IMG/VR virus record: IMGVR_UViG_3300045988_148646
Coordinates: 1-32,000 of that record
From: a virus
Length of the DNA: 32,000 bases
Direction: 5' to 3' (one strand)
Positions 124 to 29,646 of this stretch are shown here, piece by piece (positions within the stretch are counted from its first letter, which is position 1; every line of letters starts with the position of its first letter). The translations under genes were made by a program, and so were the position numbers. The notes under the pieces are model-generated. The model saw only the letters and a program-made list of their open reading frames with translations, was not told the origin of the DNA and did not search any database.

Positions 124-891
124 TTATTGAATTTCAATTAAAGGTGTAGCACTTACCCAAATACCACCAATCTTTGCAAGATTTTTTTTCACATTAATTT
201 CATCAACTCTGACTCTATCCACATATACTACCGAATTTGTAGTATGTAACACGTTGTCATTATATCCGTCTGAACCTCGTACTTTCGTGATCATAGACAA
301 CGGAAACCAACCACCTAATTGTGATAAATAGGCACAAGTATCGTTATTAATCTTTTTTAATCCTTGATTACCAATCTTCATTTGTACAGATGTTACATAA
401 GAACCAACGTGTAAAATTTGGTCAATCGCTTCAGTTGGTTGAGGCTTAGGTTTAGATGTTTGAACTGGTTTAGCAGTTGCGAAGCATTTAGGTCTGAAAG
501 CAGTGTCAAACGTAGCACTATAAGGTAGTTTACATAAAGTGAACGCTCCATTCTTTCCACCTTGATTTTGCCCTAAGAACCAACCATATTTACCATCAAT
601 GTCAGAATCGAAGATTGCAATGTGTGAGTATGGTGTCCATCCTGCAACTTCTCTAAATACCGCAATGTCTCCTGGTTGCATAACTGTGACCTCGTTGCAG
701 TAGTTCAAAATTCCATTAGTCTTACGATTATTCCAAATATCCTTAACATATCCACTTGTAGTACAGTGAATCGCCTTATATCCTAAATCAATCATGTACT
801 TCATAGTTCCGTCCCAACATTGAGCGCCATAATAGCCATCAATGTCATAGGCTTTCCCCATTACTTTTTGTTTAAAATCATTATAATTCAT
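124..891 (-). CDS. Endolysin: N-terminal CHAP peptidase/amidase plus C-terminal cell-wall-binding (SH3b-like) domain
   Basis: 255 aa. It has the CHAP catalytic motifs GAQCWD (Cys) and SHIAIF (His). It directly abuts the holin gene and is the last gene of the late operon. Confidence 0.85.
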   Translation of the reverse strand: MNYNDFKQKVMGKAYDIDGYYGAQCWDGTMKYMIDLGYKAIHCTTSGYVKDIWNNRKTNGILNYCNEVTVMQPGDIAVFREVAGWTPYSHIAIFDSDIDGKYGWFLGQNQGGKNGAFTLCKLPYSATFDTAFRPKCFATAKPVQTSKPKPQPTEAIDQILHVGSYVTSVQMKIGNQGLKKINNDTCAYLSQLGGWFPLSMITKVRGSDGYNDNVLHTTNSVVYVDRVRVDEINVKKNLAKIGGIWVSATPLIEIQ

Positions 892-1116
892 TTACTCTTC
901 CTCCGGTACACTAATTTCAGGTAATCCACCAATACTAGTCAATAACGAAACAACGCCTGACAAAAGCGCTGACGAAATTACAACTCGCCAATCAACGGCT
1001 TCCAATAATGCAGATGCTCCAATAACACCAACAGCAGTTTGAGCAATTGTCTTTAATGCTCTGATACTTGCATAATAGCCATATTGAATCCACCATTCTT
1101 TACTATATTTTTTCAT
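892..1116 (-). CDS. Holin (small, two hydrophobic helices, phi LC3-like size class)
   Basis: 74 aa with two predicted TM segments and a charged C-terminus (PEEE). Its stop abuts the endolysin start. A GGAGGT SD lies 8 nt upstream of the ATG. Confidence 0.75.
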   Translation of the reverse strand: MKKYSKEWWIQYGYYASIRALKTIAQTAVGVIGASALLEAVDWRVVISSALLSGVVSLLTSIGGLPEISVPEEE

Positions 1117-1155: not shown

Positions 1156-1174
1156 TTTGTACACTGTACAAAAT
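1156..1174 (-). promoter_or_regulatory. Candidate late operator/promoter element: 19-mer TTTGTACACTGTACAAAAT containing the perfect palindrome TTGTACA-c-TGTACAA
   Basis: The exact 19-mer recurs at 23699-23717. It sits 41 nt upstream of the holin ATG. A weak -10-like TACTAT (1141-1146, minus strand) lies 10 nt downstream of the palindrome. Confidence 0.55.
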
Positions 1175-1195: not shown

Positions 1196-1669
1196 TTATT
1201 GATACATATTAAACATGTCTCGTATATGTGTCTTAATCATTGTTTTTTCTTCATCTGAATCAACGCATCCATGAATCATAGTTACGATTTGTTGCATACA
1301 TTTCATAGTCTTATCTAATTCACGATGAGACTTTTCCAAATCCATCTCACCTTTTGTACGCTCATATTCTTCTTTGAACGCTTTATATTTTTTCAAATGT
1401 TCTGCAAGCTTATAAACAATATCTTCTGTTTCTGGATCATGAATATTATATCCATCATTATCTTCTTTTAATCTTGCAACAGTTGAAACTCCATCTTTTC
1501 CTATCTCAATCTGATATTTATTTCTCATTGCTTCTATAGTTTCAATGTCTTTGATATTATCTAAAGCTTGAGATAATGCATGGAAATAAGATTCTGCATA
1601 TCCATATTTCTCTAACATGTTTACTGACTCATGCATTATCTTTTCATTAACTTCCATTGCTTTATGCAT
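1196..1669 (-). CDS. Hypothetical helical protein (accessory block)
   Basis: 157-aa ORF in line with its neighbours, with a weak AGGT SD. I recognise no motif. Confidence 0.6.
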   Translation of the reverse strand: MHKAMEVNEKIMHESVNMLEKYGYAESYFHALSQALDNIKDIETIEAMRNKYQIEIGKDGVSTVARLKEDNDGYNIHDPETEDIVYKLAEHLKKYKAFKEEYERTKGEMDLEKSHRELDKTMKCMQQIVTMIHGCVDSDEEKTMIKTHIRDMFNMYQ

Positions 1670-1678
1670 ATTTTTTAC

Positions 1679-2098
1679 CTACGCAATCTTCTTAATAATG
1701 ATGTTTGCATTTTGAACAGATAAATCCAAGCCACTGTTATTTGCTAATGCAATTGTATAAGATGCACCACATGGAACTTGAATTAGAGTGTCTCCACTTA
1801 CATTTCCATACGCACTTGCAGTTGCAACAGTATAAATAGATTGTGTTCCACCAATTGCTTCTCCGTTTAGTTCAAGCACTAAAGAAGCTTGTCCTGCCGC
1901 TGCACTCGTAATATCCGCAGTATAAGTTACTTCATAGATACCTGGCTTTGTTAGTGTAAACAATCCACTTCCTAGATCATGTGCCAACCATCCTTTACAT
2001 GGACACTGACAGGATTTACTTCTTACACGATCTGTAGGAAACAATACATTATTTGAGTTATCGACTGTCTGAACAGCCGTAGCAATACTATTAATCAT
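1679..2098 (-). CDS. Stand-alone BclA C-terminal-domain-like (C1q/TNF-like jelly-roll) protein
   Basis: 139 aa with a strong SD (AGGAGGA). The pattern NVLFP...G.F.L...G.YEV.Y...A....L.LELNG..IGGT... ends in NANIIIKKIA, which resembles the BclA CTD ending SASIIIEKVA. It has no collagen-like GXX repeats. Confidence 0.6.
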   Translation of the reverse strand: MINSIATAVQTVDNSNNVLFPTDRVRSKSCQCPCKGWLAHDLGSGLFTLTKPGIYEVTYTADITSAAAGQASLVLELNGEAIGGTQSIYTVATASAYGNVSGDTLIQVPCGASYTIALANNSGLDLSVQNANIIIKKIA

Positions 2099-2111
2099 TT
2101 CTTTTATCCTC

Positions 2112-2144
2112 CTATTAAAATAGGGATAGCCTTTCGACTATCCC
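2112..2144 (-). terminator. Hairpin/attenuator between the 207-aa gene and the BclA-like gene
   Basis: Stem GGGATAG (2123-2129) pairs with CTATCCC (2138-2144) across an 8-nt loop. The minus-strand RNA continues UAUUUUAAUA. Confidence 0.4.
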
Positions 2145-2185
2145 ATCAAATCCAAAGGCAATTGCCTAATCACATATGTGCTAGA

Positions 2186-2809
2186 TTATAAGTTGTTGTA
2201 GCCATTACATCCACATCCGTTGTTATAAGCGTAATATGGTGAACATGTAATGTAAGCTGGTTTTGGTGTTGGTTGCAAAGTATTAATGATATTTGCTGAT
2301 TGTGCCTGTTGACTTAATTGGAAATTAGCCGTCAATAATTCACGGTCACGATCAGCTAAACGATCACGTAATTCTTGCATAGTGTTTGCATTGATCAACG
2401 CACGTGTTGCTTCACCTTCTGAATGAATTGCTGTTGTAATGTCACAAGTATTTTTGAAACTTTGAGCATTTACATTGTCAATTGCTCGTTGAGTGTTGCA
2501 GCAGCATTCTTGTTGCTGAGCTTGCAAGTTTTGAAGTCCTAACTGATTAGTATAGCGACTTTCTAATACATCACGTTGAGTTTGACAACCTGTTTGAGAT
2601 ACATTTGTGTTTGTGTTAAAAATGTCTCGTTTAATGAATTCTTCATTCAATAAAGAATCATTTGTTAGGTTTCCGTTGCCATATCCTCCATATCCAAATA
2701 ATACGAAGATTAGCAAGATCCAAATCCACCAACCTCCTCCGCCTCCAAAGCCGTCATTTCTTTCAGCTAAGTTGTAAGTTGGTTGAATTCCCATTCCGTT
2801 TTCCATCAT
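2186..2809 (-). CDS. Membrane-anchored Gly/Trp-rich, Cys-rich coiled-coil protein (unknown function)
   Basis: 207 aa. The N-terminus GFGGGGGWWIWILLIFVLFGYGGYGNGN is a single TM flanked by Gly runs. Then come a Q-rich helical region with CCC and single Cys residues, and a C-terminus CSPYYAYNNGCGCNGYNNL. SD is AAGGAGAA. Confidence 0.65.
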   Translation of the reverse strand: MMENGMGIQPTYNLAERNDGFGGGGGWWIWILLIFVLFGYGGYGNGNLTNDSLLNEEFIKRDIFNTNTNVSQTGCQTQRDVLESRYTNQLGLQNLQAQQQECCCNTQRAIDNVNAQSFKNTCDITTAIHSEGEATRALINANTMQELRDRLADRDRELLTANFQLSQQAQSANIINTLQPTPKPAYITCSPYYAYNNGCGCNGYNNL

Positions 2810-2850
2810 ATATGTTCTCCTTTCTTTCTATAATAACGGTTTAGCCGTTG

Positions 2851-3093
2851 TTACCTGATTCCAAATTGTTTTGCCATTTGTTGAAGTTGTTGCTTTTGTT
2901 GTGGATTTAAATTACCCATCATCTGATTTAAAATCATTTGTGGATTCTGGCCACTGTTCATAAGCATTTGAAATTGTTGAAATGCTTGTGGATTTTTCTG
3001 TGACAAAATATTCATTAACATTTGTTGGGGATTTCCCATATTCATCATATTCATTGGATTCATATTACCCATAATACTTTTTAAAGGATTCAT
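2851..3093 (-). CDS. Gln/Asn/Met-rich low-complexity protein with repeated NPQ..M motifs
   Basis: 80 aa. An ATGA start/stop overlap with the upstream gene suggests translational coupling. The sequence is dominated by M, N, Q and P (MNPMNMMNMGNPQQMLMN...NPQMILNQMMGNLNPQQKQQLQQM). Confidence 0.6.
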   Translation of the reverse strand: MNPLKSIMGNMNPMNMMNMGNPQQMLMNILSQKNPQAFQQFQMLMNSGQNPQMILNQMMGNLNPQQKQQLQQMAKQFGIR

Positions 3094-3530
3094 TTTGTCT
3101 GTGCTCCTTTCTTTGATTGCTCATTAGCTTGTTTTGGTGGTTTGCTTAATGCACAGATCAAATCATCTAATTTCTTTTCGATTCCATTTACACGATTTTC
3201 AATACTGTTAGAATTATCTTCCGTGATTTCTTCAAATTTAAATTTTTTAAATGTTCCATCTAAAGATTTCATATAAAAAATAGATTTATTGTTATCAAAT
3301 AAAATCGTTGGTAAATTTGCATTCGCAAAGTTTCTAGCTTCATTCTCATCATTCACCCATTTTCCATTAAAATCAAAATTACCTTGTTGTTGTGGTGTAA
3401 TCTGATTATTAATATTGATAGGTGGAATATTTGCATACTGTTGTACTTGCTGAATTTGTTGATCTATCATTTGTCTTTGCTGCATCAAGCTATCAATTCG
3501 TGCTTGTGCTGGATTATAATTGTTATACAT
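3090..3530 (-). CDS. Hypothetical protein with a Q-rich N-terminus
   Basis: The ORF track starts at GTG 3539. ATG 3530 has the better-spaced SD (AGAGGTGG). The product begins MYNNYNPAQARIDSLMQQRQMIDQQIQQVQQ. Confidence 0.6.
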   Translation of the reverse strand: MYNNYNPAQARIDSLMQQRQMIDQQIQQVQQYANIPPININNQITPQQQGNFDFNGKWVNDENEARNFANANLPTILFDNNKSIFYMKSLDGTFKKFKFEEITEDNSNSIENRVNGIEKKLDDLICALSKPPKQANEQSKKGAQTK

Positions 3531-3600
3531 TTCAACCACCTCTTTACGCTTTAATTATATGGTTACGTAATAAATAATTTAATACTCGAATAATACTCAT

Positions 3601-3642
3601 AAAATACCCAAAATAAAATGAGCAACCATTATAGATTGCTCA
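3601..3642 (-). terminator. Rho-independent terminator overlapping the end of the sigma-region-4 gene
   Basis: Stem TGAGCAA (3619-3625) pairs with TTGCTCA (3636-3642) across a 10-nt loop that contains the stop codon. The minus-strand RNA continues UUUUAUUUUGGGUAUUUU. Confidence 0.6.
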
Positions 3643-3862
3643 CATATTTATCGAACATTTTTCTTGCTTTGCATACTCTGTTCCTTATGGTTTGTACTTC
3701 CATATGTAATGCATCTGCAATTTCTGTGCATGACATATCATACACGTATCTCATAATCAAAACCTGTTCATATTTCTTTCTTAATCCAACAGATTTGATA
3801 AGTATTAATGCATCATTAGGACGTATCTCTTTTAATCTGTCAGCTTTGTTAATATAAACCAC
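3629..3862 (-). CDS. Stand-alone sigma-70 region-4-like HTH protein
   Basis: 77 aa. The segment RKKYEQVLIMRYVYDMSCTEIADALHMEVQTIRNRVCKARKMF matches the region 4.2 pattern (..ILxxRYxxxMSxxEIAxxLxxSxxTVxxRxxxAR). No region 2 is encoded here or in adjacent ORFs. Confidence 0.6.
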   Translation of the reverse strand: MVYINKADRLKEIRPNDALILIKSVGLRKKYEQVLIMRYVYDMSCTEIADALHMEVQTIRNRVCKARKMFDKYVSNL

Positions 3863-3870
3863 CGCCTTAA

Positions 3871-4104
3871 TTAAATTCGTTGGTTTGAATTAGCTTCGCA
3901 AGAACAATTATTCACATGATCATCTTTCCAATAACCACGACAAACAATAGTAGAATAAAGAACAATAATCACTAAAACCAATACTGTAATAATCGTTCTA
4001 CTTGTTTTATAGTTTCGATCAATTAATTTTGAGCAAAAACCATAAATATTATCTACTTTTTCTTCTACATTCTGAAGTTTCTTGTTTGCATCTTTAATAT
4101 CCAT
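3871..4104 (-). CDS. Small single-pass membrane protein with a Cys-containing C-terminal tail
   Basis: 77 aa with an N-terminal amphipathic helix, a TM segment (IITVLVLVIIVLYSTIV) and a tail with CxC. It overlaps the upstream gene by 11 nt. Confidence 0.55.
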   Translation of the reverse strand: MDIKDANKKLQNVEEKVDNIYGFCSKLIDRNYKTSRTIITVLVLVIIVLYSTIVCRGYWKDDHVNNCSCEANSNQRI

Positions 4105-4387
4105 TTTTATTATGATCCTCCAACGCTTTTACACGATTAAACAAAGTAATTATTTGTTGTTTTAGTTCTGAAAGCTCCACTTCCATTGAATTGCTTCCTT
4201 TTTTTATTTCTGAAATTGAATCTTTAATATCACTTAAATCCGATTTAATATGTTCTAATTCATTCTTCAAAAATGCCATATTGGATATTTGCTCTCCATC
4301 CATCTTGCGGGTGCCACGATTATACGTAATAAATGCAATTACAAGCATGCATGCAGAAATAATAACACTAAGATATTCTCCACTCAT
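4094..4387 (-). CDS. Small membrane protein: N-terminal TM plus coiled coil (BhlA/UviB- or XhlA-like architecture)
   Basis: 97 aa. The TM segment is LSVIISACMLVIAFITY, followed by basic residues and then heptad-like LKNELEHIKSDLSDIKDSISEIKK...LSELKQQIITLFNRVKALE. Confidence 0.5.
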   Translation of the reverse strand: MSGEYLSVIISACMLVIAFITYNRGTRKMDGEQISNMAFLKNELEHIKSDLSDIKDSISEIKKGSNSMEVELSELKQQIITLFNRVKALEDHNKNGY

Positions 4388-4453: not shown

Positions 4454-7105
4454 CTATTTAGCATCATTTCTATAAGCGTTTAAATTTCCATCGTAACTGA
4501 TATAGTTCATACGTTTGCCACTTCCATCATCAGCAAAAGGACTACTCCACCAATCTATCTCAATTCTACCACGATAACACCCACGTAATATTTCAGTAAA
4601 TGGTAGTGTTCCTTCTACTGTTTTATCACCAACGATTTCATTTGTTGGAATGTTCCATGTAGTTTCCGTTGAAGTACCAATCATAATAAGCGTTGAGCTT
4701 TGTAGTCTATTAGCATAATCAGCTACAAAATCTTGAGGTTCTGTGATTCCATTCTTTGAAAGCAAACCTAAACGATAGCACGCTTCGATTGAGCAACCAA
4801 TGAAAATATTAGAGTGCTCAAATCTACCATATGTTTTTCTATCACCTAACACAATCGCATTATAATCATGATGTAGTTTAACATCTTCAAAAATAAAGTG
4901 TTCACCATTGCACGCTAAGCCTTTTCCACAGTACCAAATGTTAGAATGTTTTACATAGTTTTGAATACCGTAGTTTGAACCACGACCTACACGAATACCA
5001 CAACATTCTGCATTTGGTGTATTTTCAAAAGTAGCATAATCAAGCAAGTGTTCTTCCCATGATCGAATATTTACACTATCGATCATAGTTGATAAACATC
5101 TAGTTGTGTCAACATATGTGATAGGTTTGTCATATTTAAAACCAATGATATTGAAATTTTTAAAATTAACAGAACAAGCTATACGATCAGCCTCTTTAGA
5201 AATGTCATATCCAGCACCTAGAATAATGTTATTTGTAGAATCATCAAAAGAATTATGTAATTCTTCACTAACAACTAATTTAACACCTTCAAAATCTTGA
5301 GGACTAGTTTTATGCTTTCCACACATTGTGATATATCTTCGTCTACTTGAACCATCATATCCTAGTAAATTTTCATTTAAAGATAAACTGACTTTTGCAT
5401 TATTGCTTGTTTTCCATGCTTTATTAATGTTATAAGTTCCGTCCATTAATTTAATATTAATAGAATTAAAACTACCAACTAAAGCACTTAATACATCTGT
5501 ATCATTTGTACCATCACACACGATATCACTAATCTGCTTGTAGGAATATTTTGAATCTGATGCACTTACAACAATATCATCGTTGTCATGTGGTTTATCA
5601 ATATACCAAATTTTAATACCAGATAAATCCGAAGCAATACTAATAGGATTAGTTTCGTCTTTTGATTTAAAATGAATATGTAAATCATGATTTCCATAAA
5701 TTGAAAAAGGTGTTTCAGTATCAATTCCATCACCATCAACATAATAATGACAAATCATTGTATCTGGGAATGTTACTAAAAATAATCCATTTCCACCAAT
5801 AATTTGTGGTGCTACTCTGTTAGGTACTTTTGTTTCTAGTTGTCCTTCTGGATAGTATGAACCATTTATAAAATTAAGATTAACTTGATTATCTTTATGT
5901 TGTTTTTCTTTTTCAACTTTAAAGTTTAAAATTCCAACTGACTTAGCAACACGAATAAATTTATAGTCTTTATCTGCAACTAAAGTATAACTTCTACTAA
6001 TTTGTGGAATATCTCTCCATAATGTTAAATTAGTTGGTTCTGAACTAGAATAAATGTCTGTGTTATATAATGTGACTGTTGTATTTGCCAATCTATCAAC
6101 ATCAACTGTAACTGTTACAATTTCACCTTTTTTAACATCTATAATATAATATTCATCTTCGGCATACTGTTTCACGTAGTTATTTAAAACGACTGGCTTA
6201 ACAATAGATTGCAAATTATATAGTGCTGTATCATACGTAAATACATTTAAATTTAATGTATCTGTTAGTGAATTTCTAAATACATTCATCTTTGTTGCAT
6301 CTTTTTTAAGATAGAAAATCTTTTTTTCTGAAGTCTGTGATAAATTCAAAATTGTATCAATAATAACATTACTTGAGTCATAAAAAGATATTGAATATTG
6401 ACCGTTTCCATTAAACACTGTATCTAATAAATACATTGTGTTTGCTTTTAAATCAACAACGAATGAATTAATTTCATTCGTTGATAACGTATCAACTTGT
6501 GCAATACTAACTAATCCACTGTTAGCATAGTCCCCTAAAACTTCATTTAGTGAATTAACTTGTGATTGCAAATTATCGTTTTGCTTATTTATCATATTTG
6601 ATAATTCGTTATAGATTTGTGCAATTCTATCTTCTTCCTCACTACTAGGTGTATAAGATTTAATATAAATTCCATCAGGTGTAATTACAGATGCAATTTG
6701 TGTAGACCATCTTTGATCAATTACGCTTGAACTATTTTTAGTCATAACTGCGCTCATCGCAAAATGTAATACTCCTGAATTTTTCAAAGCATCAAATGGT
6801 ACTTTCCATGCAAATTCACAAGTATCATTATTAATTGTTTTGTTAATCGCAATTGACTGACCCTTAACTCCCTTAGAATCAATCCAATTTATATAAACAA
6901 TTGAATCTTGCATTTTTTGAATATCAGATAACTTGTTTCTGATTCTAAATTTAATCAGTTTAGAATTTCCATCATATTGCACTCCGAACAATCTAGATAC
7001 ATTATTAATATTAATAGTATGTGTATCTGTATCAATCGTAAGATATTCGTCATCATAATCATAAGCAACCGCATCAAAGCTTAGTCTTGCTTTCAATCCA
7101 TCCAT
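4454..7105 (-). CDS. Tailspike / receptor-binding protein: BppU-like N-terminal domain, coiled-coil neck, C-terminal beta-helix-like (depolymerase-like) region
   Basis: 883 aa and the last large structural gene. It has a coiled coil EEEDRIAQIYNELSNMINKQNDNLQSQVNSLNEV. The C-terminal third carries repetitive G/N/C-rich short strands (GIRVGRGSNYGIQNY..NIWYCGKGLACNGEHF..) typical of right-handed beta-helices. Confidence 0.65.
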   Translation of the reverse strand: MDGLKARLSFDAVAYDYDDEYLTIDTDTHTININNVSRLFGVQYDGNSKLIKFRIRNKLSDIQKMQDSIVYINWIDSKGVKGQSIAINKTINNDTCEFAWKVPFDALKNSGVLHFAMSAVMTKNSSSVIDQRWSTQIASVITPDGIYIKSYTPSSEEEDRIAQIYNELSNMINKQNDNLQSQVNSLNEVLGDYANSGLVSIAQVDTLSTNEINSFVVDLKANTMYLLDTVFNGNGQYSISFYDSSNVIIDTILNLSQTSEKKIFYLKKDATKMNVFRNSLTDTLNLNVFTYDTALYNLQSIVKPVVLNNYVKQYAEDEYYIIDVKKGEIVTVTVDVDRLANTTVTLYNTDIYSSSEPTNLTLWRDIPQISRSYTLVADKDYKFIRVAKSVGILNFKVEKEKQHKDNQVNLNFINGSYYPEGQLETKVPNRVAPQIIGGNGLFLVTFPDTMICHYYVDGDGIDTETPFSIYGNHDLHIHFKSKDETNPISIASDLSGIKIWYIDKPHDNDDIVVSASDSKYSYKQISDIVCDGTNDTDVLSALVGSFNSINIKLMDGTYNINKAWKTSNNAKVSLSLNENLLGYDGSSRRRYITMCGKHKTSPQDFEGVKLVVSEELHNSFDDSTNNIILGAGYDISKEADRIACSVNFKNFNIIGFKYDKPITYVDTTRCLSTMIDSVNIRSWEEHLLDYATFENTPNAECCGIRVGRGSNYGIQNYVKHSNIWYCGKGLACNGEHFIFEDVKLHHDYNAIVLGDRKTYGRFEHSNIFIGCSIEACYRLGLLSKNGITEPQDFVADYANRLQSSTLIMIGTSTETTWNIPTNEIVGDKTVEGTLPFTEILRGCYRGRIEIDWWSSPFADDGSGKRMNYISYDGNLNAYRNDAK

Positions 7106-21109: not shown

Positions 21110-22767
21110 TAATTCACCTTCCTTTTCTTGTTTTCAAGGCGGTATTTAAATGTATCCCACCATTTTTGTCTTACTGTATATGCATCAATAACAGATGCAT
21201 ACCCATCAATATGTTTTCTTGGATCAGTTTTAATCATGCGGACACGATTGTCCTCCGCAACTTTTTTTAATGCCACACTAGACATATGTGCTTGTAAAAG
21301 TCCATTTGTTCCTGTATGAACAAACCCATCTCTTACATATCCTGTAAATTCATTAATAACCGGTGTAAGGTTAGTACCCTGAATGACATCATCCATCTTG
21401 TATCCATATTTCTTCATATCATCCACAAGATACTGAGCTGAATAACGGTCATATCCAACGACCACGCAATAAATCTTGTATTTCTTACGTAGCATTTCAA
21501 ACCATTCCGTAACATCTTCATAACGTACAAAGTTTTCCCCACTTGGACTTAAATAACCCAATTGAATAAATCTTGTATATGGTATTTTGTCTCTTTCTTC
21601 TAGCTCCTTGATTTTTAATGTTGGAAGCCAAAAATGAGTAAATATGTAGTCCTGTTCTTGAATTCGTATAACAACAGATGCGGCTGTTAAATCGGTTGTT
21701 TGTGACAAATCAATTCCACCAACTGCATATGTATGTGCAAAATCTTCAAATCTAAGTTCTTCACCTTTAACTTTGTTGATATCTTCTGCACTAAATAACG
21801 CTTCTGTTGAATTCTGTTTGATATTCGCATATTTTGTTATGAATTCAGCTTTATATGTTGGTGAGCTATGTGCTTTTAAAATTTCATTCTGCAAATATTC
21901 ATAAGAAACCGATATTCCAAGGTTTGGCATTGCTTTTCTTAATTCAATAGGATCATCCCATTTTTGAATATCATCAATCATATAAAAGAAAGGCAACATT
22001 TGTTTTTCATCAGACGTACCTAGTAAAACAGATGTTCCACGAACAAATAATTCATCATATAATCCTTCATCAATATAGTTTGCGGTACTTACAGGAATAT
22101 AAAGTGGATCAGGTCTTGCCCCGCCTGCCGACAACATAACGTTGTACATTTTCATACCCGCTTCACCTTCCCAGGCTGCAAACTCATCAAAGATTGTCAA
22201 ATATGGGTTGAATCCGTCTGACTTCTTAGATGCAAAGGCAATTGGCTCCCATCGACAATTGTTCTGTTTCATGTAGATATCTGTTCTACGTTTTTTCACT
22301 CTTTGACTCAACGCTTTAGAGTGTTCCATCATTTGATACAGAACATTGTAAATGATCTGCGCTTGTTTTAACTTTGGCGCTATATTGTATATCTGCATAC
22401 CTGCTTCATCAGATGTAAATCCAACATCAAGTTCAATACCTGCACAAAGAAATGATTTTCCTTGTTTTCGGCCCATGACCGTAGGTATTTCACGAAACTG
22501 CCTTTTTCCATTCTTATCAACAAGTCCGAATATGCACGCAATATAATATTTTTGCCAAGGCTCAAGCTTCACTTTTGTTGTTTTTCCTTCTACGTGATGA
22601 CAAAACGTTTCAATAAACGCTATATGCATTTCCGCTTTTTTCTCATCATAGAAGAAATCTCCATTTGCTAAACCTCTTTCAACATATTGAAGATTAAGTT
22701 TTATCCACTTACCGACTACATCTTCACCCGATTTAATACGTTCTTTATAAATGTCTAGATATTTCAT
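21109..22767 (-). CDS. terL: Terminase large subunit
   Basis: 552 aa with a Walker A-like MGRKQGKS and a Walker B-like LTIFDEFA. It overlaps terS by 4 nt. Confidence 0.9.
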   Translation of the reverse strand: MKYLDIYKERIKSGEDVVGKWIKLNLQYVERGLANGDFFYDEKKAEMHIAFIETFCHHVEGKTTKVKLEPWQKYYIACIFGLVDKNGKRQFREIPTVMGRKQGKSFLCAGIELDVGFTSDEAGMQIYNIAPKLKQAQIIYNVLYQMMEHSKALSQRVKKRRTDIYMKQNNCRWEPIAFASKKSDGFNPYLTIFDEFAAWEGEAGMKMYNVMLSAGGARPDPLYIPVSTANYIDEGLYDELFVRGTSVLLGTSDEKQMLPFFYMIDDIQKWDDPIELRKAMPNLGISVSYEYLQNEILKAHSSPTYKAEFITKYANIKQNSTEALFSAEDINKVKGEELRFEDFAHTYAVGGIDLSQTTDLTAASVVIRIQEQDYIFTHFWLPTLKIKELEERDKIPYTRFIQLGYLSPSGENFVRYEDVTEWFEMLRKKYKIYCVVVGYDRYSAQYLVDDMKKYGYKMDDVIQGTNLTPVINEFTGYVRDGFVHTGTNGLLQAHMSSVALKKVAEDNRVRMIKTDPRKHIDGYASVIDAYTVRQKWWDTFKYRLENKKRKVN

Positions 22768-23138
22768 TTAAATCTGCTCATGAACTCATCCAATTCATCA
22801 CCTTTTTTTCCGGATACTTCTGTTGTCTTTGACAGTGAAGTAGGTGACAAGCCAAGTTCTTTGCAGTATTTCATAATTTGATCACGTAATTGAACGGTAA
22901 TAATGTAGTATGGTGAGCGCGATAAATTCGTTGCACCGCCCTTGTTCGTATATTCAACAACCATCTGTAGTGATTTGTAGCCATTTGCTTTACTTGAATC
23001 TCTCCATTGCTTCATTGTTGAATCATATTGGGCCAATGCATCTGCAAGTGAATCAACCGCAACCGAATATTCAGGAGAAAATGTGCCTAAATTCTCTAGT
23101 TGTGAATTGATTCTTTTTTTCCATGCTCCTTTTTGCAT
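22764..23138 (-). CDS. terS: Terminase small subunit (P27-like)
   Basis: 124 aa directly upstream of terL. The C-terminal ..KYCKELGLSPTSLSK.. is typical of P27-family small subunits. Confidence 0.75.
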   Translation of the reverse strand: MQKGAWKKRINSQLENLGTFSPEYSVAVDSLADALAQYDSTMKQWRDSSKANGYKSLQMVVEYTNKGGATNLSRSPYYIITVQLRDQIMKYCKELGLSPTSLSKTTEVSGKKGDELDEFMSRFK

Positions 23139-23482
23139 TCATCATCCTCCCTTCCACATCCTATAAGCATTCCGTTTTCATCAAACTCAAAAGATGGTTT
23201 ACGTTTGGAATGTTCTTCAGCATGGCATAAGTCACACAACGCTTCCAAATTAGAATCGCCAAATAGAATGTGTATATCTCTATAGTTGTCCTGGTCAATA
23301 TGTACTTTGTGATGCACACAAGTTGACCTGGTATAGATACCTTTTTTCAAACATCTTTCACAAAGTGGATGTGCCTTCCTATACGCTTTGCTTTTCTTTT
23401 CCCAAGCCTTGCTTGAGTAAAATTTTCTAGCATAATTTCTAGCACCTGTTTTTGTTGCTTCTGAACCATAATATTTTTTCAT
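23096..23482 (-). CDS. HNH endonuclease (cos-packaging associated)
   Basis: It has CERC...HHK...N...LC..CH motifs. I prefer the MKKYYG start at 23482. The longest ORF (to 23593) only adds a hydrophobic, SD-less 37 aa. Confidence 0.8.
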   Translation of the reverse strand: MKKYYGSEATKTGARNYARKFYSSKAWEKKSKAYRKAHPLCERCLKKGIYTRSTCVHHKVHIDQDNYRDIHILFGDSNLEALCDLCHAEEHSKRKPSFEFDENGMLIGCGREDDECKKEHGKKESIHN

Positions 23483-23698
23483 ATCGCTACATTCAAAGTT
23501 TTGACCATAACTACAGTTAACAGATTTAAAGGACGACAAAAATAACAGTAAATACTTTGAATGCAGTGATATGAAAAAGACCCATGTTTCCATAGGTCTT
23601 TTTCAACGGGCACGAAATAATGAAACAATCCAAGAACTACCTTGTTTGTTCAGAAGATGTTTTCCAATCTTCACGACTACAGAATATCACGGTTTTTC

Positions 23699-24918: not shown

Positions 24919-25052
24919 AAACGTGAACCCCTAGCACGTCGCCAAACTTGAAAGGGATTCACACAACGGCAATTATACACAATATTCAGGAGGTTAAGCC
25001 CGTCTTGTATATATTGCTTTTCTATTCTACCATAGACGGGTTAAAAAAGAAA

Positions 25053-25535
25053 ATGAAAGAACAAAAATACTATTATGGAAATGCTATAAGTGAATACGGT
25101 TTAGAAAATGGACGTGTTGACTATGGAACTCTAGCAAAGGCTTTTGATGCCGTATTAAATAACGATATTATGAACCTAACTTATGATATTGGATGTTGGG
25201 AGCAAGTGAGCGGTATCATTGACAACACGGACGAGATAGAAGAGCTAGAAGAAAAAAGAGACGAGCTAGAAGAAGAAAACGAAAATAACCCATCACAAAT
25301 TATTGAAAATGAAATAAATGAAATAAATGAACAAATAGAAGAACTTGAAAACGAGCAAGACGAGAACAACGAAGTCTTTCAATGGTTTATTGTGGATGAT
25401 TGGGGCGCTAGATTATTACAAGATATCGATGAAGTTGTTTACTACAATGAAAAACTTGATATGTATTTATGGGGCGTTACGCACTACGGTACTTCTTGGG
25501 ACTATGTTCTAACAAGCGTTAAAATTGATTGGTAG
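25053..25535 (+). CDS. Highly acidic protein with a central Glu/Asn-rich helical insert (unknown; DNA-mimic candidate)
   Basis: 160 aa from ATG 25053 (MKEQKYYYG). An alternative in-frame TTG at 25005 lies 11 nt after AGGAGG (24988-24993). The central tract is DEIEELEEKRDELEEENENNPSQIIENEINEINEQIEELENEQDENNE. Confidence 0.65.
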   Translation: MKEQKYYYGNAISEYGLENGRVDYGTLAKAFDAVLNNDIMNLTYDIGCWEQVSGIIDNTDEIEELEEKRDELEEENENNPSQIIENEINEINEQIEELENEQDENNEVFQWFIVDDWGARLLQDIDEVVYYNEKLDMYLWGVTHYGTSWDYVLTSVKIDW

Positions 25536-25548
25536 GTGTAATACACCA

Positions 25549-25698
25549 ATGTTAACACGCAAAGATCTTGACAAGATGAGCGCCTTCCAGGTGCTCATAC
25601 TTGCTTTATTGAAGTTTTACTTTTATATATGTTTTGACTTGCTTATCATGGGCTTAATATTATGTTTTTCTTGTATTATATTGCCACTTATTTATTAA
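25549..25698 (+). CDS. 49-aa hydrophobic peptide (not in the ORF track)
   Basis: Hand translation gives MLTRKDLDKMSAFQVLILALLKFYFYICFDLLIMGLILCFSCIILPLIY. A TAGGTG SD lies 10 nt upstream, and the ORF exactly fills the gap between two genes. Confidence 0.4.
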   Translation: MLTRKDLDKMSAFQVLILALLKFYFYICFDLLIMGLILCFSCIILPLIY

Positions 25699-25716
25699 AT
25701 ATTGGAGGTTTTAAAA

Positions 25717-25947
25717 ATGAATAACAAAGAATATATTGAGTTTACAGAAAAAAAGCTAGATCAACTAAATGTTTCTAGCTGTAAACCTTTTTCAATCAAT
25801 AAACATTTAAACGGCTTATATAATTTATATTATGGGCTTGACGTTGTGGCCTGGATGTTAAAACCGCGTGAACTCTGGCAGCTTGTAAATACTTTATGTA
25901 TTTTGGATATTTTAGGAGGTCTTAAAAATGACAATATGGAAGCGTGA
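25717..25947 (+). CDS. Hypothetical protein
   Basis: 76 aa from ATG 25717, with a GGAGG SD 8 nt upstream. It overlaps the next gene by 20 nt. Confidence 0.65.
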   Translation: MNNKEYIEFTEKKLDQLNVSSCKPFSINKHLNGLYNLYYGLDVVAWMLKPRELWQLVNTLCILDILGGLKNDNMEA

Positions 25948-26521
25948 GCGTGCTCACTTTAATTACTACATCACAAATGAAAGAAAACAACCACACATAT
26001 TTGTTGAAGCGTTAGGAACTCCCAGCGCTTCAACTGAAAAAATTTTAAAAGATCACGGTTTTAAGTTTGATCATAATAAATGCATGTATGTAGCAGCTCA
26101 AACAAATGACTTGAGGTTGTTCGTTGCTCATGATCTGGATAAAGTTTTTAACTATGATATTCAGTTGTTTTATAATACAGAAGCAAAAAAAGAACTTTGC
26201 GCGCCTGATATTCAGGAAATAAAAGATATTTGTTATTATTTTAAAATTTACAAGTGTTATATAGATATATTAAATAAGGATCTTTTTAAGATATGTAAAC
26301 CAGGATCAAAAAGCTTGCTTTTTACTTATAACACTAACTATAAAACTATAGACGTTTTTAATAGAAATAAGTTGCAAGAAAGTTATGTTTACCATGATGG
26401 TAAAATAGAAAAAATGAGCATCGAAAATAATGCACCAAAAAAGAAAAAGAAAGCAGCACCAGCACTTACAGAACAACAAAAGATCAATAAAATGATGGAA
26501 GATTTTGAATTTCCATTTTAG
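25928..26521 (+). CDS. Hypothetical protein with a Lys-rich C-terminal tail
   Basis: 197 aa with an AGGAGGT SD. I recognise no motif. Confidence 0.7.
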   Translation: MTIWKRERAHFNYYITNERKQPHIFVEALGTPSASTEKILKDHGFKFDHNKCMYVAAQTNDLRLFVAHDLDKVFNYDIQLFYNTEAKKELCAPDIQEIKDICYYFKIYKCYIDILNKDLFKICKPGSKSLLFTYNTNYKTIDVFNRNKLQESYVYHDGKIEKMSIENNAPKKKKKAAPALTEQQKINKMMEDFEFPF

Positions 26522-26535
26522 GAGGTAAAAAAAAT

Positions 26536-27111
26536 ATGGGATACATTGGTAATAAAATGAGCGTGCGCGCTTATGAAGCTTATGAAAGTGGTGAAAAGCC
26601 ACTTTCAAAATGGACTAAAACAGCAATCATTAATACAGTATTAGATTATAGAGATGATTTTAAATATGATGAGTTGAAAAAGTATAGTAAGGATGCTTTA
26701 AAAGCTTTCCTAACATATTCAAGCTGGCATCATACGGGATCATACTTTAATGAAACATTTTTCTATAGTTTGGATGAAAGTTTTATAGAAAACGAAAAAA
26801 ATCATATCATAAACGTTTTAGAAGAAAAAACGCAAGAGTTAAAAAAAGAAAAAGAAGAAAAAAGATTAAAAAAATGTGATGAAAAACTAGAAAAATGTTA
26901 TTTTATGTATACAGAATTTGAAGGAACTCGAAAACATCCAAAAGCTGTTGAACGTGAAGCTTATGGAATTATAAAAGGAAATTGGATCTATATGGAATCA
27001 GGAAAAAAATCATTGAATGGTAAATACATTTATAAAGTAAAAAAGTTTGATCGTGCGCCACGCGGAACGGCTCAAATCTTTAAAAATATCGAAAAAAGAA
27101 TTAAAAAATAG
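26536..27111 (+). CDS. Hypothetical protein with the N-terminal motif SVRAYEAYESGEKPLSKWTK
   Basis: 191 aa with an AGGAGGT SD 9 nt upstream. From memory, the N-terminal motif recurs in Firmicute mobile-element proteins of unknown function. This was not verified. Confidence 0.7.
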   Translation: MGYIGNKMSVRAYEAYESGEKPLSKWTKTAIINTVLDYRDDFKYDELKKYSKDALKAFLTYSSWHHTGSYFNETFFYSLDESFIENEKNHIINVLEEKTQELKKEKEEKRLKKCDEKLEKCYFMYTEFEGTRKHPKAVEREAYGIIKGNWIYMESGKKSLNGKYIYKVKKFDRAPRGTAQIFKNIEKRIKK

Positions 27112-27137
27112 CAGCTTATAAAAAGGCTGCTTTTTTT
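27110..27137. terminator. Bidirectional rho-independent terminator between convergent genes
   Basis: Stem AGCAGCTT/AAGGCTGCT (27110-27131) is flanked by an A-run upstream and T7 downstream, so there is a U-tract on both strands. Stop codons of both convergent genes abut it. Confidence 0.8.
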
Positions 27138-27693
27138 ATGCTCTCGTTCTTTTTATTTGCTTCTGGATCAGCTTTTTTTTGACTGGATTCGATGCGAAAA
27201 AGTTCATGAAAAGTTTAGTTTTAAACTCATATTCTTTTTGATCAATTTCCTTTATATCCAAAACCCTTTTAAATATCACTATCGCGATAAAGTTCGCAAA
27301 CAAGTTTGCATCTTTTTCTATTTCCTGGTTCTCATAATTTTCATTTTGAGAATCTTTATAACTTTCAAGTTCCTTTTTCCATATAGATACACTTCTTTCA
27401 TCCATAGAAAATACTTTTTGATTCTTCTTATATACACATGAATATTGATATAAATGTCTTATTTCATGTGCAAGATATATATAAACTAAACTACTATCTA
27501 TGGATGTATTCAGGTTTACACAAATCACATTTTCAATTGGATAGGATGTGCATATACTGCTATCTTTCACTTGAAAAAGTTCTTTATTGACTGGTTTCTT
27601 ATTAAGATCATAAACTTTATCATTTGCTTTAAAGTAAACTTTTGGAATCTTTATATTTAATAATGTGCATAGAAAACTTATATAATCATTCAT
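27136..27693 (-). CDS. Putative zinc metallopeptidase, ImmA/IrrE-like (HExxH ... ExxDANxFA)
   Basis: 185 aa with LAHEIRH and, downstream, QEIEKDANLFANFIA, which resembles the COG2856 signature E..EAN.FA. No adjacent Xre-type HTH gene is present. Confidence 0.5.
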   Translation of the reverse strand: MNDYISFLCTLLNIKIPKVYFKANDKVYDLNKKPVNKELFQVKDSSICTSYPIENVICVNLNTSIDSSLVYIYLAHEIRHLYQYSCVYKKNQKVFSMDERSVSIWKKELESYKDSQNENYENQEIEKDANLFANFIAIVIFKRVLDIKEIDQKEYEFKTKLFMNFFASNPVKKKLIQKQIKRTRA

Positions 27694-28780: not shown

Positions 28781-29182
28781 TTATTTATTTGTATCTTCTA
28801 CATTAATCAAGCCATGTTCAATCGTTTCTTTAGCAGGAAAGAATGTTATTTTATATCCATACGGATTTTCTTTTACCGAATCGGTCTGAATACTTGTATA
28901 TGTTACATCTTTTGATAAATGTGCATAAAACAATTTATATTTATCTTTTCCAGTTTTAATCGTTACATTCAAATCGCCATCACTATCTGTTTCAATAGAT
29001 ATTTTTCCTTCAACAGAAAACAACGGTTCATTTGTTCTAGTATTTAATGCCACAACCTTTCTCGATATTTTAAAGTTGTTTGCATCCACTCTTAAATTAT
29101 GATTAGCTGTATCTGATTCTTGGCATCCTACCAAACCTAGACACATTGTCATTCCTAAAATTGCACATAATATTTTTTTCAT
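28781..29182 (-). CDS. Small lipoprotein (beta-rich), paralog 2
   Basis: 133 aa with lipobox LGLVGC and the motif VEGKISIETDSDGDLNVTIKTGKDKYKLFY. Confidence 0.7.
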   Translation of the reverse strand: MKKILCAILGMTMCLGLVGCQESDTANHNLRVDANNFKISRKVVALNTRTNEPLFSVEGKISIETDSDGDLNVTIKTGKDKYKLFYAHLSKDVTYTSIQTDSVKENPYGYKITFFPAKETIEHGLINVEDTNK

Positions 29183-29646
29183 TTGTTCAAATCTCCCATA
29201 ACAAGCTTTTTAAGCTCTTTTTTCATTGCATAATACATTTTCATTCTGCTACAGAACTTTTCTCCTGAAAGCTTCTCAAATGGCTCTCCATTGATATAAT
29301 GACGTTTCATGTATAAACGAACATCATCATTTGGAATAAGATCAATAATTGTTTCAACCTCTCTCAGCTTTCCTAAAATGATATTCTTATCATCTTCAAG
29401 TACTTTTTCTTTTGAAATAAACTTTACAAGAACATCATTTGTAATATCCTTATTTTTCTTTGAATCCAGTCTCTGCTCAAATGATGGAGATTTCGGATCT
29501 GAAAATTCTTTTTTGCGAACCTCCAAATCCTTCAAGATTCCATCCAACGATTTAAACTTTCTTTCATAGATCTTGAACATTTCAAGCTTTTTAATTAATG
29601 CATCCACCTGAACATCTACATATTCTTCATAATCCGTCTTGCTCAT
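29179..29646 (-). CDS. Sigma-region-4-like phage transcription regulator (ArpU/RinA/DUF1492-like class), candidate late activator
   Basis: 155 aa. The C-terminus IPNDDVRLYMKRHYINGEPFEKLSGEKFCSRMKMYYAMKKELKKL fits the (ER.IL..RYI.G..WE.IA..L..S.R.V.R....AL) pattern of such regulators. Confidence 0.5.
   Translation of the reverse strand: MSKTDYEEYVDVQVDALIKKLEMFKIYERKFKSLDGILKDLEVRKKEFSDPKSPSFEQRLDSKKNKDITNDVLVKFISKEKVLEDDKNIILGKLREVETIIDLIPNDDVRLYMKRHYINGEPFEKLSGEKFCSRMKMYYAMKKELKKLVMGDLNK

Follow-up and report, generated by a model that had tools for sequence, protein, structure and literature searches.

A collinear six-gene cassette led by a stand-alone sigma-70 region 4-type gene in phages of gut Bacillota

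A mobile cassette and two backbone genes

The DNA analysed here (the window) is 32,000 nt in length, positions 1 to 32,000 of the IMG/VR virus record IMGVR_UViG_3300045988_148646, and represents the late region of a siphovirus prophage of Holdemanella biformis, with its genes on the minus strand. A sequence-only reading of this DNA had described eight minus-strand open reading frames (ORFs) between the tail genes and the holin gene as one unexplained accessory block (positions 1196–4387). All eight ORFs are found at these positions, but they are not a single unit. The block consists of two lineage-specific backbone genes, p97 and p77TM, and a mobile cassette of six genes that extends from a helix-turn-helix (HTH) gene through P149, P80, P207 and p139 to p157. 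The five genes after the HTH gene form an operon, P149-P80-P207-p139-p157, which is separately promoted and ends in a second terminator. The cassette has a constant gene set and order, is broadly distributed, has moved between sites and has been lost repeatedly, and its terminator, promoter and direct repeats show a recurrent layout. The view that this is accessory, separately transcribed DNA matching no described system thus holds for the cassette, which has its own promoter and terminators.

The distribution was determined from 140 loci that encode relatives of the 207 amino acid (aa) protein P207. All ORFs of these loci were searched with iterated hidden Markov models (HMMs) made from the window proteins, and neighbouring ORFs were clustered to find further cassette families. 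The loci form 55 clusters at 85% P207 identity, and lineage counts include only loci with enough flanking DNA (45 or 44 lineages). Among 139 P207-bearing loci, P149 is present in 127, P80 in 120, the BclA_C protein (p139 in the window) in 102, p157 in 84 and the HTH in 75, and the order (HTH)-P149-P80-P207-BclA_C-p157 is strictly collinear. After dereplication P149 is found in 42/45 lineages and P80 in 35/45, with a small beta protein downstream in 41/44 and a helical protein downstream in 34/44. In dozens of independent phage lineages these genes are found together in one order, and the block is therefore more than a chance arrangement. The sequence-only reading had made its case depend on co-occurrence outside this phage, and such collinear blocks are what is observed.

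The flanking genes are phage genes (terminase, portal, capsid, antirepressor, integrase), and the carriers are sipho-, podo- and myovirus-like genomes from human and animal gut Bacillota. Many of the hosts are Clostridia, and contigs with the cassette include ones assigned to Phascolarctobacterium, Megasphaera and Gastranaerophilales. Clostridium perfringens phages isolated as lytic phages also carry it. The insertion sites differ. In the window the cassette is directly upstream of the holin gene, and in the lineage of locus L148 it is between a multi-transmembrane (TM) holin (phrog_199, 173 aa) and the endolysin. It lies between Phage_min_cap2 and a scaffold gene in seven clusters (L003, L055, L074, L078, L082, L099, L124), beside integrase and replication genes in Dulem virus 39, among early genes in C. 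perfringens phage CPD1, and as an island between opposite-strand genes in L098 and L127. An r1t holin is next to the cassette in 1/44 lineages, and holin adjacency is limited to two related lineages; these are not independent, since their endolysins are shared at ~80% identity.

Three deletion variants preserve scars of the cassette. In L150 (8685–8973) the first six codons of the HTH gene are fused to the last ~30 codons of the BclA_C gene, and a truncated p157 gene is kept. In L157 (8800–8955) fragments of P149 (QKQMIESQLQNIQ) and the p157 C-terminus are left between holin and endolysin. These two scars differ, though both are within the L148 lineage. The third variant, L219 (6517–6963), has lost the DNA from the HTH gene to the middle of the BclA_C gene. 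The three losses are independent, which argues that the cassette is not needed for the virion or for lysis. In two database ORFs, P0140 (221 aa) and P0192 (200 aa), most of P149 runs directly into the C-terminal half of BclA_C; they are probably further deletion chimeras that removed P80 and P207, not functional fusions.

The two genes that lie upstream of the cassette encode small membrane proteins, as had been read from the sequence. The p97 protein (4094–4387, minus strand) has a TM segment at residues 1–24 followed by a coiled coil, and p77TM (3871–4104, minus strand) is a single-pass protein with a TM segment at residues 32–59. Both are found in 1/45 dereplicated lineages, and every close relative reached via p97 is from the lineage of the window itself. 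Deletion variant L219 retains both genes. They are considered backbone genes because they are confined to the window lineage and are kept after cassette loss. Family matches of p97 are weak, with phrog_1863 at 1.4e-5 and XhlA/haemolysin-type PHROGs at ~3e-3; its best holin-family match, Hol_Tox (E = 0.0069), has 16.7 bits, below the 23.3-bit cut-off. No significant Pfam or PHROG match was found for p77TM. The two genes are perhaps associated with lysis. Other cassettes have an analogous TM and coiled-coil protein, c23, with an XhlA match at E = 0.008, and profile comparison of p97 and c23 showed no detectable relationship.

The HTH gene and the operon promoter

The first cassette gene (3629–3862, minus strand) encodes a 77 aa protein with a stand-alone sigma-70 region 4-type HTH (Sigma70_r4_2, E = 2e-10). 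Sigma region 2 was not found in it with Pfam or NCBIfam; only Sigma70_r4/r4_2 match, and the NCBIfam sigma models align only over the last ~50 positions. The gene is directly 5' of P149 in at least 17/45 lineages. Among the 17 cassette-linked HTH representatives, 16 are 66–110 aa and consist of region 4 only, and one is 184 aa. The HTH is presumed to be the regulator of the downstream operon. The 184 aa protein, from L126 (8122–8676), has several N-terminal hydrophobic segments ahead of the region 4 HTH and may be a membrane-tethered form of the regulator.

Three stable minus-strand hairpins, with z-scores of -4.0 to -4.7 against shuffled sequences, bear out the terminators and hairpin that had been placed in the block. 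The first is terminator-like and overlaps the stop codon of the HTH gene (positions 3618–3643, -15.2 kcal/mol, z = -4.67). The second is between the P207 and BclA_C-like genes (2123–2144, -15.4 kcal/mol, z = -3.97); its T-tract is weak and the next ribosome-binding site (RBS) abuts it, so that it could serve in attenuation or in RNA stability. The third is terminator-like and closes the operon (1177–1197, -11.6 kcal/mol, z = -4.64). A hairpin with a T-run is found 3' of the HTH gene in 12/15 HTH-adjacent lineages, compared with 64/600 random windows of similar length. An Rfam search of the block found nothing.

The operon promoter has a good -10 element and is without a canonical -35. The -10 element is TATAAT (3554–3559, minus strand), ~20 nt 5' of the P149 start codon, and a -10-like hexamer is present 8–50 nt 5' of the P149 start in 34/45 lineages, as against 26% of random windows. 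Over the -35 region there is a direct repeat, GAGTATTA-N3-GAGTATTA, with 11-bp spacing (3580–3598, minus strand). Seven-base direct repeats at 10–13 bp spacing occur 5' of P149 in 15/45 lineages, 12 of them at exactly 11 bp, and in 6% of random windows. The order of elements in the window is terminator (3643–3618), repeats (3598–3580), 20 nt, TATAAT (3559–3554), RBS and the ATG at 3530. In L090, a distant lineage whose P207 is ~50% identical, the geometry is equal with a different repeat, GTTTATCA. By its geometry the GAGTATTA pair is a candidate binding site for the HTH. The layout supports, and does not prove, recognition of the -35 region by the region 4-only HTH at a dedicated promoter.

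Phage late activators that have region 4 (RinA/ArpU/DUF1492, PBSX Xpf) or act as lambda Q does are similar to the cassette HTH in that a small HTH gene lies upstream of a presumed target unit, and in that the cassette promoter has a -10, no canonical -35, and repeats in the -35 area. They differ in that the cassette HTH is region 4 alone, with 66–110 aa, and is positioned at the end of the late operon, where it serves one cassette and not a whole late regulon. Lambda Q-type antitermination by the HTH was considered and ruled out: the terminator is upstream of the promoter, 5' of the operon -10 and not 3' of it. The HTH matches PF06530 (Phage_antitermQ) with 21.8 bits, under the 26-bit cut-off.

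Promoter sequences were also noted at the endolysin genes of two loci, L148 (8950–9000) and L157 (8955–9000), which have an extended -10 promoter, TGTGCTATAAT, a few bases 5' of the RBS. A -10 close to the RBS is thus common to the P149 operon and the endolysin of the L148 lineage, and may be the late-promoter style of these phages.

The core proteins P207, P149 and P80

The signature protein, P207 (2186–2809, minus strand), combines a Gly/Trp-flanked hydrophobic segment (residues 20–39) with QTQRD...CCC repeats, a long helix, a C-terminal motif and a Gly/Cys tail. The window copy is 207 aa with eight cysteines, including a CCC triplet and a GCGC tail, and family members have 5–18 cysteines. 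The motif PxP(A/S)Y(L/I)(T/S)CSPY and the Gly/Cys tail are invariant across the family alignment. The family is large, with 5,321 clusters at 90% identity and 1,109 at 50% identity. Homologues are mostly ~190–300 aa in length without domain fusions (clusters at 50% identity), and identity between hosts of different classes is 40–50%. H. biformis annotations include near-identical copies (WP_302129787.1).

No Pfam domain was found in any of the 5,321 homologues, and their source name never goes beyond 'hypothetical protein'. The best Pfam match of P207 itself is Flg_hook at E = 0.16, with no spore-coat, exosporium or holin family. There is no NCBIfam match, PHROG matches are to families of unknown function only, and single-sequence and profile searches of PDB show no relatives (nothing below E = 0.01). 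P207 is the sole cassette protein with a hydrophobic segment; among the eight proteins of the block the others are in p97 and p77TM, and the remaining five have none. No signal peptide was found in any cassette protein.

P149 (3090–3530, minus strand) is 146 aa from the ATG at 3530. The ORF list places the start at a GTG at 3539 (149 aa), inside the Shine-Dalgarno sequence. The ATG, which the sequence-only reading had also chosen, is the better start because it is preceded by the RBS AAAGAGGTGG and agrees with the MY(N)YNP beginning of homologues. The protein has a Q-rich helix, an IPPININN linker, a small beta-rich core and a C-terminal helix. The AlphaFold2 model has a mean pLDDT (predicted local distance difference test) of 73, and core residues 55–105 are at ~90. 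No PDB fold matched this model better than E = 0.24, and the fold search gave a weak match to a collagen trimerisation domain at E = 0.32. Matches in BFVD are uncharacterised or auto-annotated proteins of uncultured phages, with names that look like coiled-coil auto-annotations. P149 has no Pfam match and nothing below E = 0.01 in sequence and profile searches of PDB. A tblastn search of phages with P149 also found nothing, although HMMs detect the protein in CPD1; the tblastn result is probably due to low-complexity masking.

P80 (2851–3093, minus strand) is a Met/Gln-rich, helical protein with repeated NPQ motifs. Its gene and that of P149 are translationally coupled, as proposed, by a 4-nt overlap (3090–3093). 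Pfam signals in the P80 family are scattered and all sub-threshold, with SurA_N in three members, XPC-binding in two, and STI1-HOP_DP, UBQLN1 and Trigger_C in one each.

The core proteins belong to no characterised family, and the cassette would fall outside the known kinds of phage systems, a rating that reflects missing functional knowledge and not a new mechanism that has been demonstrated. The literature on DUF7841, on the matching PHROGs, on Holdemanella prophages and on C. perfringens phage proteomics was searched, and a description of the cassette was not found there.

Exchangeable downstream modules

The gene downstream of P207 in the window encodes p139 (1679–2098, minus strand), a stand-alone BclA_C (TNF/C1q-like) beta-sandwich protein of 139 aa without collagen GXX repeats. 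The Pfam match to BclA_C (PF18573) has 41.0 bits against a 38-bit cut-off (E = 2.1e-10), so that this domain call of the sequence-only reading stands, as does its call of the region 4 HTH. The protein also matches phrog_20016 at 1.2e-18. Among the best 120 homologues nearly all are stand-alone proteins of 137–145 aa, with a few fragments or chimeras and a longest member of 221 aa; most close homologues have a precomputed PF18573 annotation. Similarity to solved BclA structures is marginal (E of ~0.08), and a search of NCBIfam for an exosporium leader gave no match. DUF3992 (Ena) and DUF4183 (F-ENA) are absent among the Pfam matches of p139 and of representatives of c5 and c19, described below.

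The BclA_C module is present in 22/44 lineages, and in 19 others the position 3' of P207 is held by the c5/c19 family. The c5 and c19 proteins are small Cys-bearing beta proteins that are mutually homologous (98% hhalign probability). No homology between BclA_C and c5/c19 was detectable with hhalign, and the c5/c19 profile found nothing in PDB. The p139 protein is therefore an exchangeable peripheral module of the cassette.

ExsF (BxpB) is a stand-alone TNF-like exosporium anchor in which proline-rich leader peptides dock in clefts of the trimer (PDB 9H3D, PMC12357932). Like ExsF, p139 is a stand-alone protein of ~140–170 aa without a collagen stalk, and like the BclA C-terminal domain it matches BclA_C. 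In principle the invariant proline-rich C-terminal motif of P207 could, by analogy, be an ExsF-style ligand. Unlike BclA and ExsF, p139 has neither collagen repeats nor an exosporium leader and is found in a phage, not a sporulation, context; moreover, c5/c19 replaces it in 19/44 lineages while the P207 motif stays unchanged. Partner types are also intermixed along the P207 tree. In view of this mixing and of the invariant motif, no specific contact between P207 and a partner can be inferred.

The last cassette gene (1196–1669, minus strand) encodes p157, which is predicted to be helical and in which a C-terminal motif, DSDFxEE(R/K), is conserved. The protein has no significant match in Pfam, PDB or PHROG and is exchangeable. 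The helical position is occupied by p157 in 13/44 lineages, by DUF7841 (Pfam E = 6.7e-23 for the member in other cassettes) in 15/44 and by c7 (~197 aa) in 10/44; several lineages carry two, and c7 and p157 are found together in several. Profile comparison among p157, DUF7841 and c7 gave no homology signal. Cassettes outside the window have extra members. A ~73 aa protein, c4, is directly 3' of P207, and some lineages add a small HExxH protein, c15, or a Cys/His protein, c14.

In five clusters, including L002, L106, L131 and L132, a free-standing HNH homing endonuclease (family c16, phrog_374, E = 5e-65) is found within the cassette. The homing endonuclease of CPD1, CPD1_038 (L002, 5032–5655), is placed between P80 and P207. 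This suggests that the conserved P207 region is a homing target among co-infecting phages.

A proposed explanation and its alternatives

The explanation we tentatively prefer is that the cassette is an HTH-controlled accessory operon whose products build a complex on a single-pass membrane protein, P207. The HTH would be produced from the upstream late transcript, bind the direct repeats and turn on the operon promoter that is without a -35. As the HTH from the late transcript would have to activate this promoter first, the operon products would appear as a delayed, self-contained late unit. P207, with its coiled coil and cysteines, would anchor the assembly in the membrane. P149, with a coiled coil and a small core of oligomerisation-like type, may be an adaptor, and P80 may be a holdase acting on the Gly/Trp-rich hydrophobic segment of P207; both would be near-obligate partners of P207. 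The beta-sandwich and helical proteins, here p139 and p157, would be interchangeable peripheral subunits. The complex would be accessory, dispensable for production and release of virions and yet strongly conserved across phages of gut Bacillota.

Several points weigh against this explanation. AlphaFold2 gave a low-confidence model of P207 (pLDDT 46) in which residues 27–39 and 119–169 are helical. The hydrophobic core of P207 is just ~12–14 residues, flanked by Gly/Trp/Asn and without positive-inside bias. Membrane insertion and topology are unproven because the core is short and the charge bias is absent. Structure prediction, which the sequence-only reading had proposed as a check, gave a confident P149 core without a PDB fold match and this poor P207 model. 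Binding of the HTH to the repeats is taken from their geometry, and a directly upstream HTH was detected in just 17/45 lineages. The chaperone-like role of P80 comes from sub-threshold matches in a low-complexity protein, and is a lead and not a finding. The deletion variants are metagenomic contigs whose viability is assumed.

A more specific form of the proposal, which is unlikely, has the products as a membrane-anchored assembly of threefold symmetry that can be cross-linked through cysteines or binds metal. P207 would be the anchor, P149 and P80 the fixed parts, the beta and helical proteins the swappable subunits, and the HTH a mini-sigma-like activator. If true, it would be a new and widespread phage 'organelle' or matrix that reorganises or protects the infected cell or the progeny, and it would serve phages of anaerobic gut Bacillota, possibly including some diderm hosts.

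It is similarly improbable that the products form a non-essential virion structure, a head or tail fibre or decoration in which P149 is a trimeric coiled-coil shaft, p139 the knob and P207 an assembly or ejection factor. The cassette follows tail genes in the window and is between minor capsid protein 2 and scaffold in the seven clusters given above. TNF/C1q-like jelly rolls are common as fibre knobs, the helix-core-helix form of P149 and its weak match to a collagen trimerisation domain would suit a shaft, and a dispensable decoration could be lost as in the deletion variants. However, a dedicated HTH, terminator and separate promoter are unusual for a structural block, and the cassettes of CPD1 and Dulem virus 39 are among early, replication or integrase genes. 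Furthermore, BclA_C is replaced by an unrelated family in 19/44 lineages, and the matching PHROGs are all of 'unknown function', none being annotated as structural.

A moron for lysogenic conversion, superinfection exclusion or defence is a doubtful alternative. The prophage would express such a moron, and P207 in the membrane would block an incoming phage or alter host fitness. Morons and late cargo beside lysis genes, such as stx of lambdoid phages and conversion genes next to the lysis module of Gram-positive prophages, share with the cassette an own promoter and terminator, insertion at permissive sites, and polymorphic, dispensable presence. The cassette sites vary and are often where the late operon or the prophage ends, and a membrane protein is included as well. 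But five or six co-adapted genes with a dedicated regulator is large for superinfection exclusion, and 40–50% identity across host classes is unusually high conservation for an exclusion factor and is unlike late cargo in being kept across such distant phages. Resemblance to toxins, enzymes or known exclusion factors is absent among the cassette products. PADLOC-DB gave no significant match, the best being coiled-coil noise (LmuB at 2e-4 for p97 and JetA at 0.009 for P149). The presence of the cassette in C. perfringens phages isolated as lytic also argues against this alternative. In L148 the HTH gene overlaps the 3' end of the multi-TM holin gene by 26 nt (6365–6390). Translation of the regulator thus appears to take place from the holin transcript, and this co-expression points to the lytic cycle.

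The same overlap, together with the location of the L148 cassette between the phrog_199 holin and the endolysin and of the window cassette directly 5' of holin and endolysin, would favour a holin-associated module for the timing of lysis. P207 would then be an extra holin or a holin regulator, its soluble partners would be antiholin-like, and p97 and p77TM would have the same function, which the weak XhlA/haemolysin-type matches of p97 would fit. In layout P207 is similar to a class III holin, T4 gpT with its RI/RIII antiholins, in that ~25–30 N-terminal residues and one hydrophobic segment precede a Cys-containing C-terminal domain of ~165 residues, and small soluble partners accompany it. 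Unlike T4 gpT, with which it has no sequence or profile similarity, P207 coexists with canonical holins, is without a Pfam holin match and is in a cassette that is usually away from lysis genes. The two lysis-adjacent lineages count as one because of their shared endolysin, few lysis enzymes are among the flanking proteins elsewhere, and in other phages the cassette is in the head module or the early region. Holin and endolysin are kept after cassette deletion. This module is a similarly doubtful alternative.

The sequence-only reading had offered a related scheme, export by a sigma factor and a holin-like protein as in TcdR/TcdE or UviA/UviB. One related lineage does have the order holin, sigma-like HTH, proteins without signal peptides, endolysin. 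The scheme is not sustained, as the cassette HTH is without sigma region 2, all cassette-linked HTH representatives are too short for a sigma factor of the TcdR/UviA type, the cargo is not toxin-like, p97, p77TM and P207 match no holin family, holin association is limited to two related lineages, and p97 and p77TM are in 1/45 lineages and are kept on cassette loss.

The remaining proposal of that reading, remodelling of the spore or cell surface by a Cys-rich and a BclA-like protein as an exosporium-type pair, is very improbable. In its favour, the BclA_C domain of p139 is real, cysteines are abundant in P207 and in the alternative beta proteins, the exosporium does have stand-alone TNF-like trimers as anchors, ExsF being one, and many hosts are Clostridia. 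Against it, the BclA_C module is optional, cassette proteins have no signal peptide or exosporium leader, hydrophobicity is confined to P207, homology to families of the CotY/ExsY/CdeC type is absent, and the host range includes taxa that do not sporulate, with H. biformis described as non-spore-forming and with Phascolarctobacterium- and Megasphaera-assigned contigs among the carriers.

Genes surrounding the block in the window

Profile searches identified the late genes TerS, TerL, portal, tape measure, Dit and a Tal-like protein in the window. Downstream of Dit and the Tal-like protein are four unannotated tail-distal proteins, the eight-ORF block, the holin and the endolysin. The holin (892–1116, minus strand) is of the r1t type (Phage_r1t_holin, 6e-12), and the endolysin (124–891, minus strand) has a CHAP domain in Pfam. 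Host genes RadC, MreC and PolA come after the endolysin on a contig of 99.7 kb, which puts the block at the prophage edge. Comparison of the window DNA with deposited phages gave no megablast match, and blastn found one 83-bp stretch only.

One of the four tail-distal proteins, of 883 aa (4454–7105), had been named a tailspike. Its location 5' of the block is correct, and the name is positional; no match was found in Pfam, NCBIfam or PHROG. Its length varies from 632 to 952 aa among relatives that are otherwise near-identical, which is consistent with a rapidly exchanging receptor-binding protein, an identity given by position.

A palindromic hexamer occurs twice in direct succession, as TGTACAgTGTACA (1158–1170, minus strand), between the cassette terminator and the holin RBS. 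The lysis genes would need a promoter of their own because they are behind the cassette terminator, and the hexamer pair may serve them as a promoter or operator element. Further upstream in the phage there is a gene for DUF1492, a region 4-like late regulator (29179–29646), followed by an HNH endonuclease (23096–23593) and TerS (22764–23138). With DUF1492 the phage has a second candidate late activator besides the cassette HTH. The minus-strand genome is interrupted by a plus-strand island of four ORFs of 81–197 aa (24948–27111), for which a Pfam search gave no matches. Beside the island is a 185 aa HExxH protein (27136–27693, minus strand) with a weak match to DUF6782, a putative metallopeptidase. 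It was considered as a counterpart of the c15 metallopeptidase of other cassettes and rejected, as there is no homology; it looks like an ImmA-type HExxH protein.

Conclusion

A large unannotated protein family travels with fixed partner genes and its own regulator through many genomes of gut phages. With this analysis, anonymous hypothetical genes become a delimited unit for which a promoter, an operator and a regulator are predicted. Two misleading readings, 'sigma factor plus holin' and 'BclA-like, therefore spore surface', are corrected. Unknowns of this sort are numerous in phage genomes, and a surprising mechanism is yet to be shown. The natural deletion alleles, together with culturable CPD1 and its relatives, make the cassette tractable, and cultured C. 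perfringens phages that carry it are in development for biocontrol. Within phage 'dark matter', a new interaction between host and virus is most likely to be hidden in a multi-gene cassette of this kind, conserved, under selection and yet dispensable.

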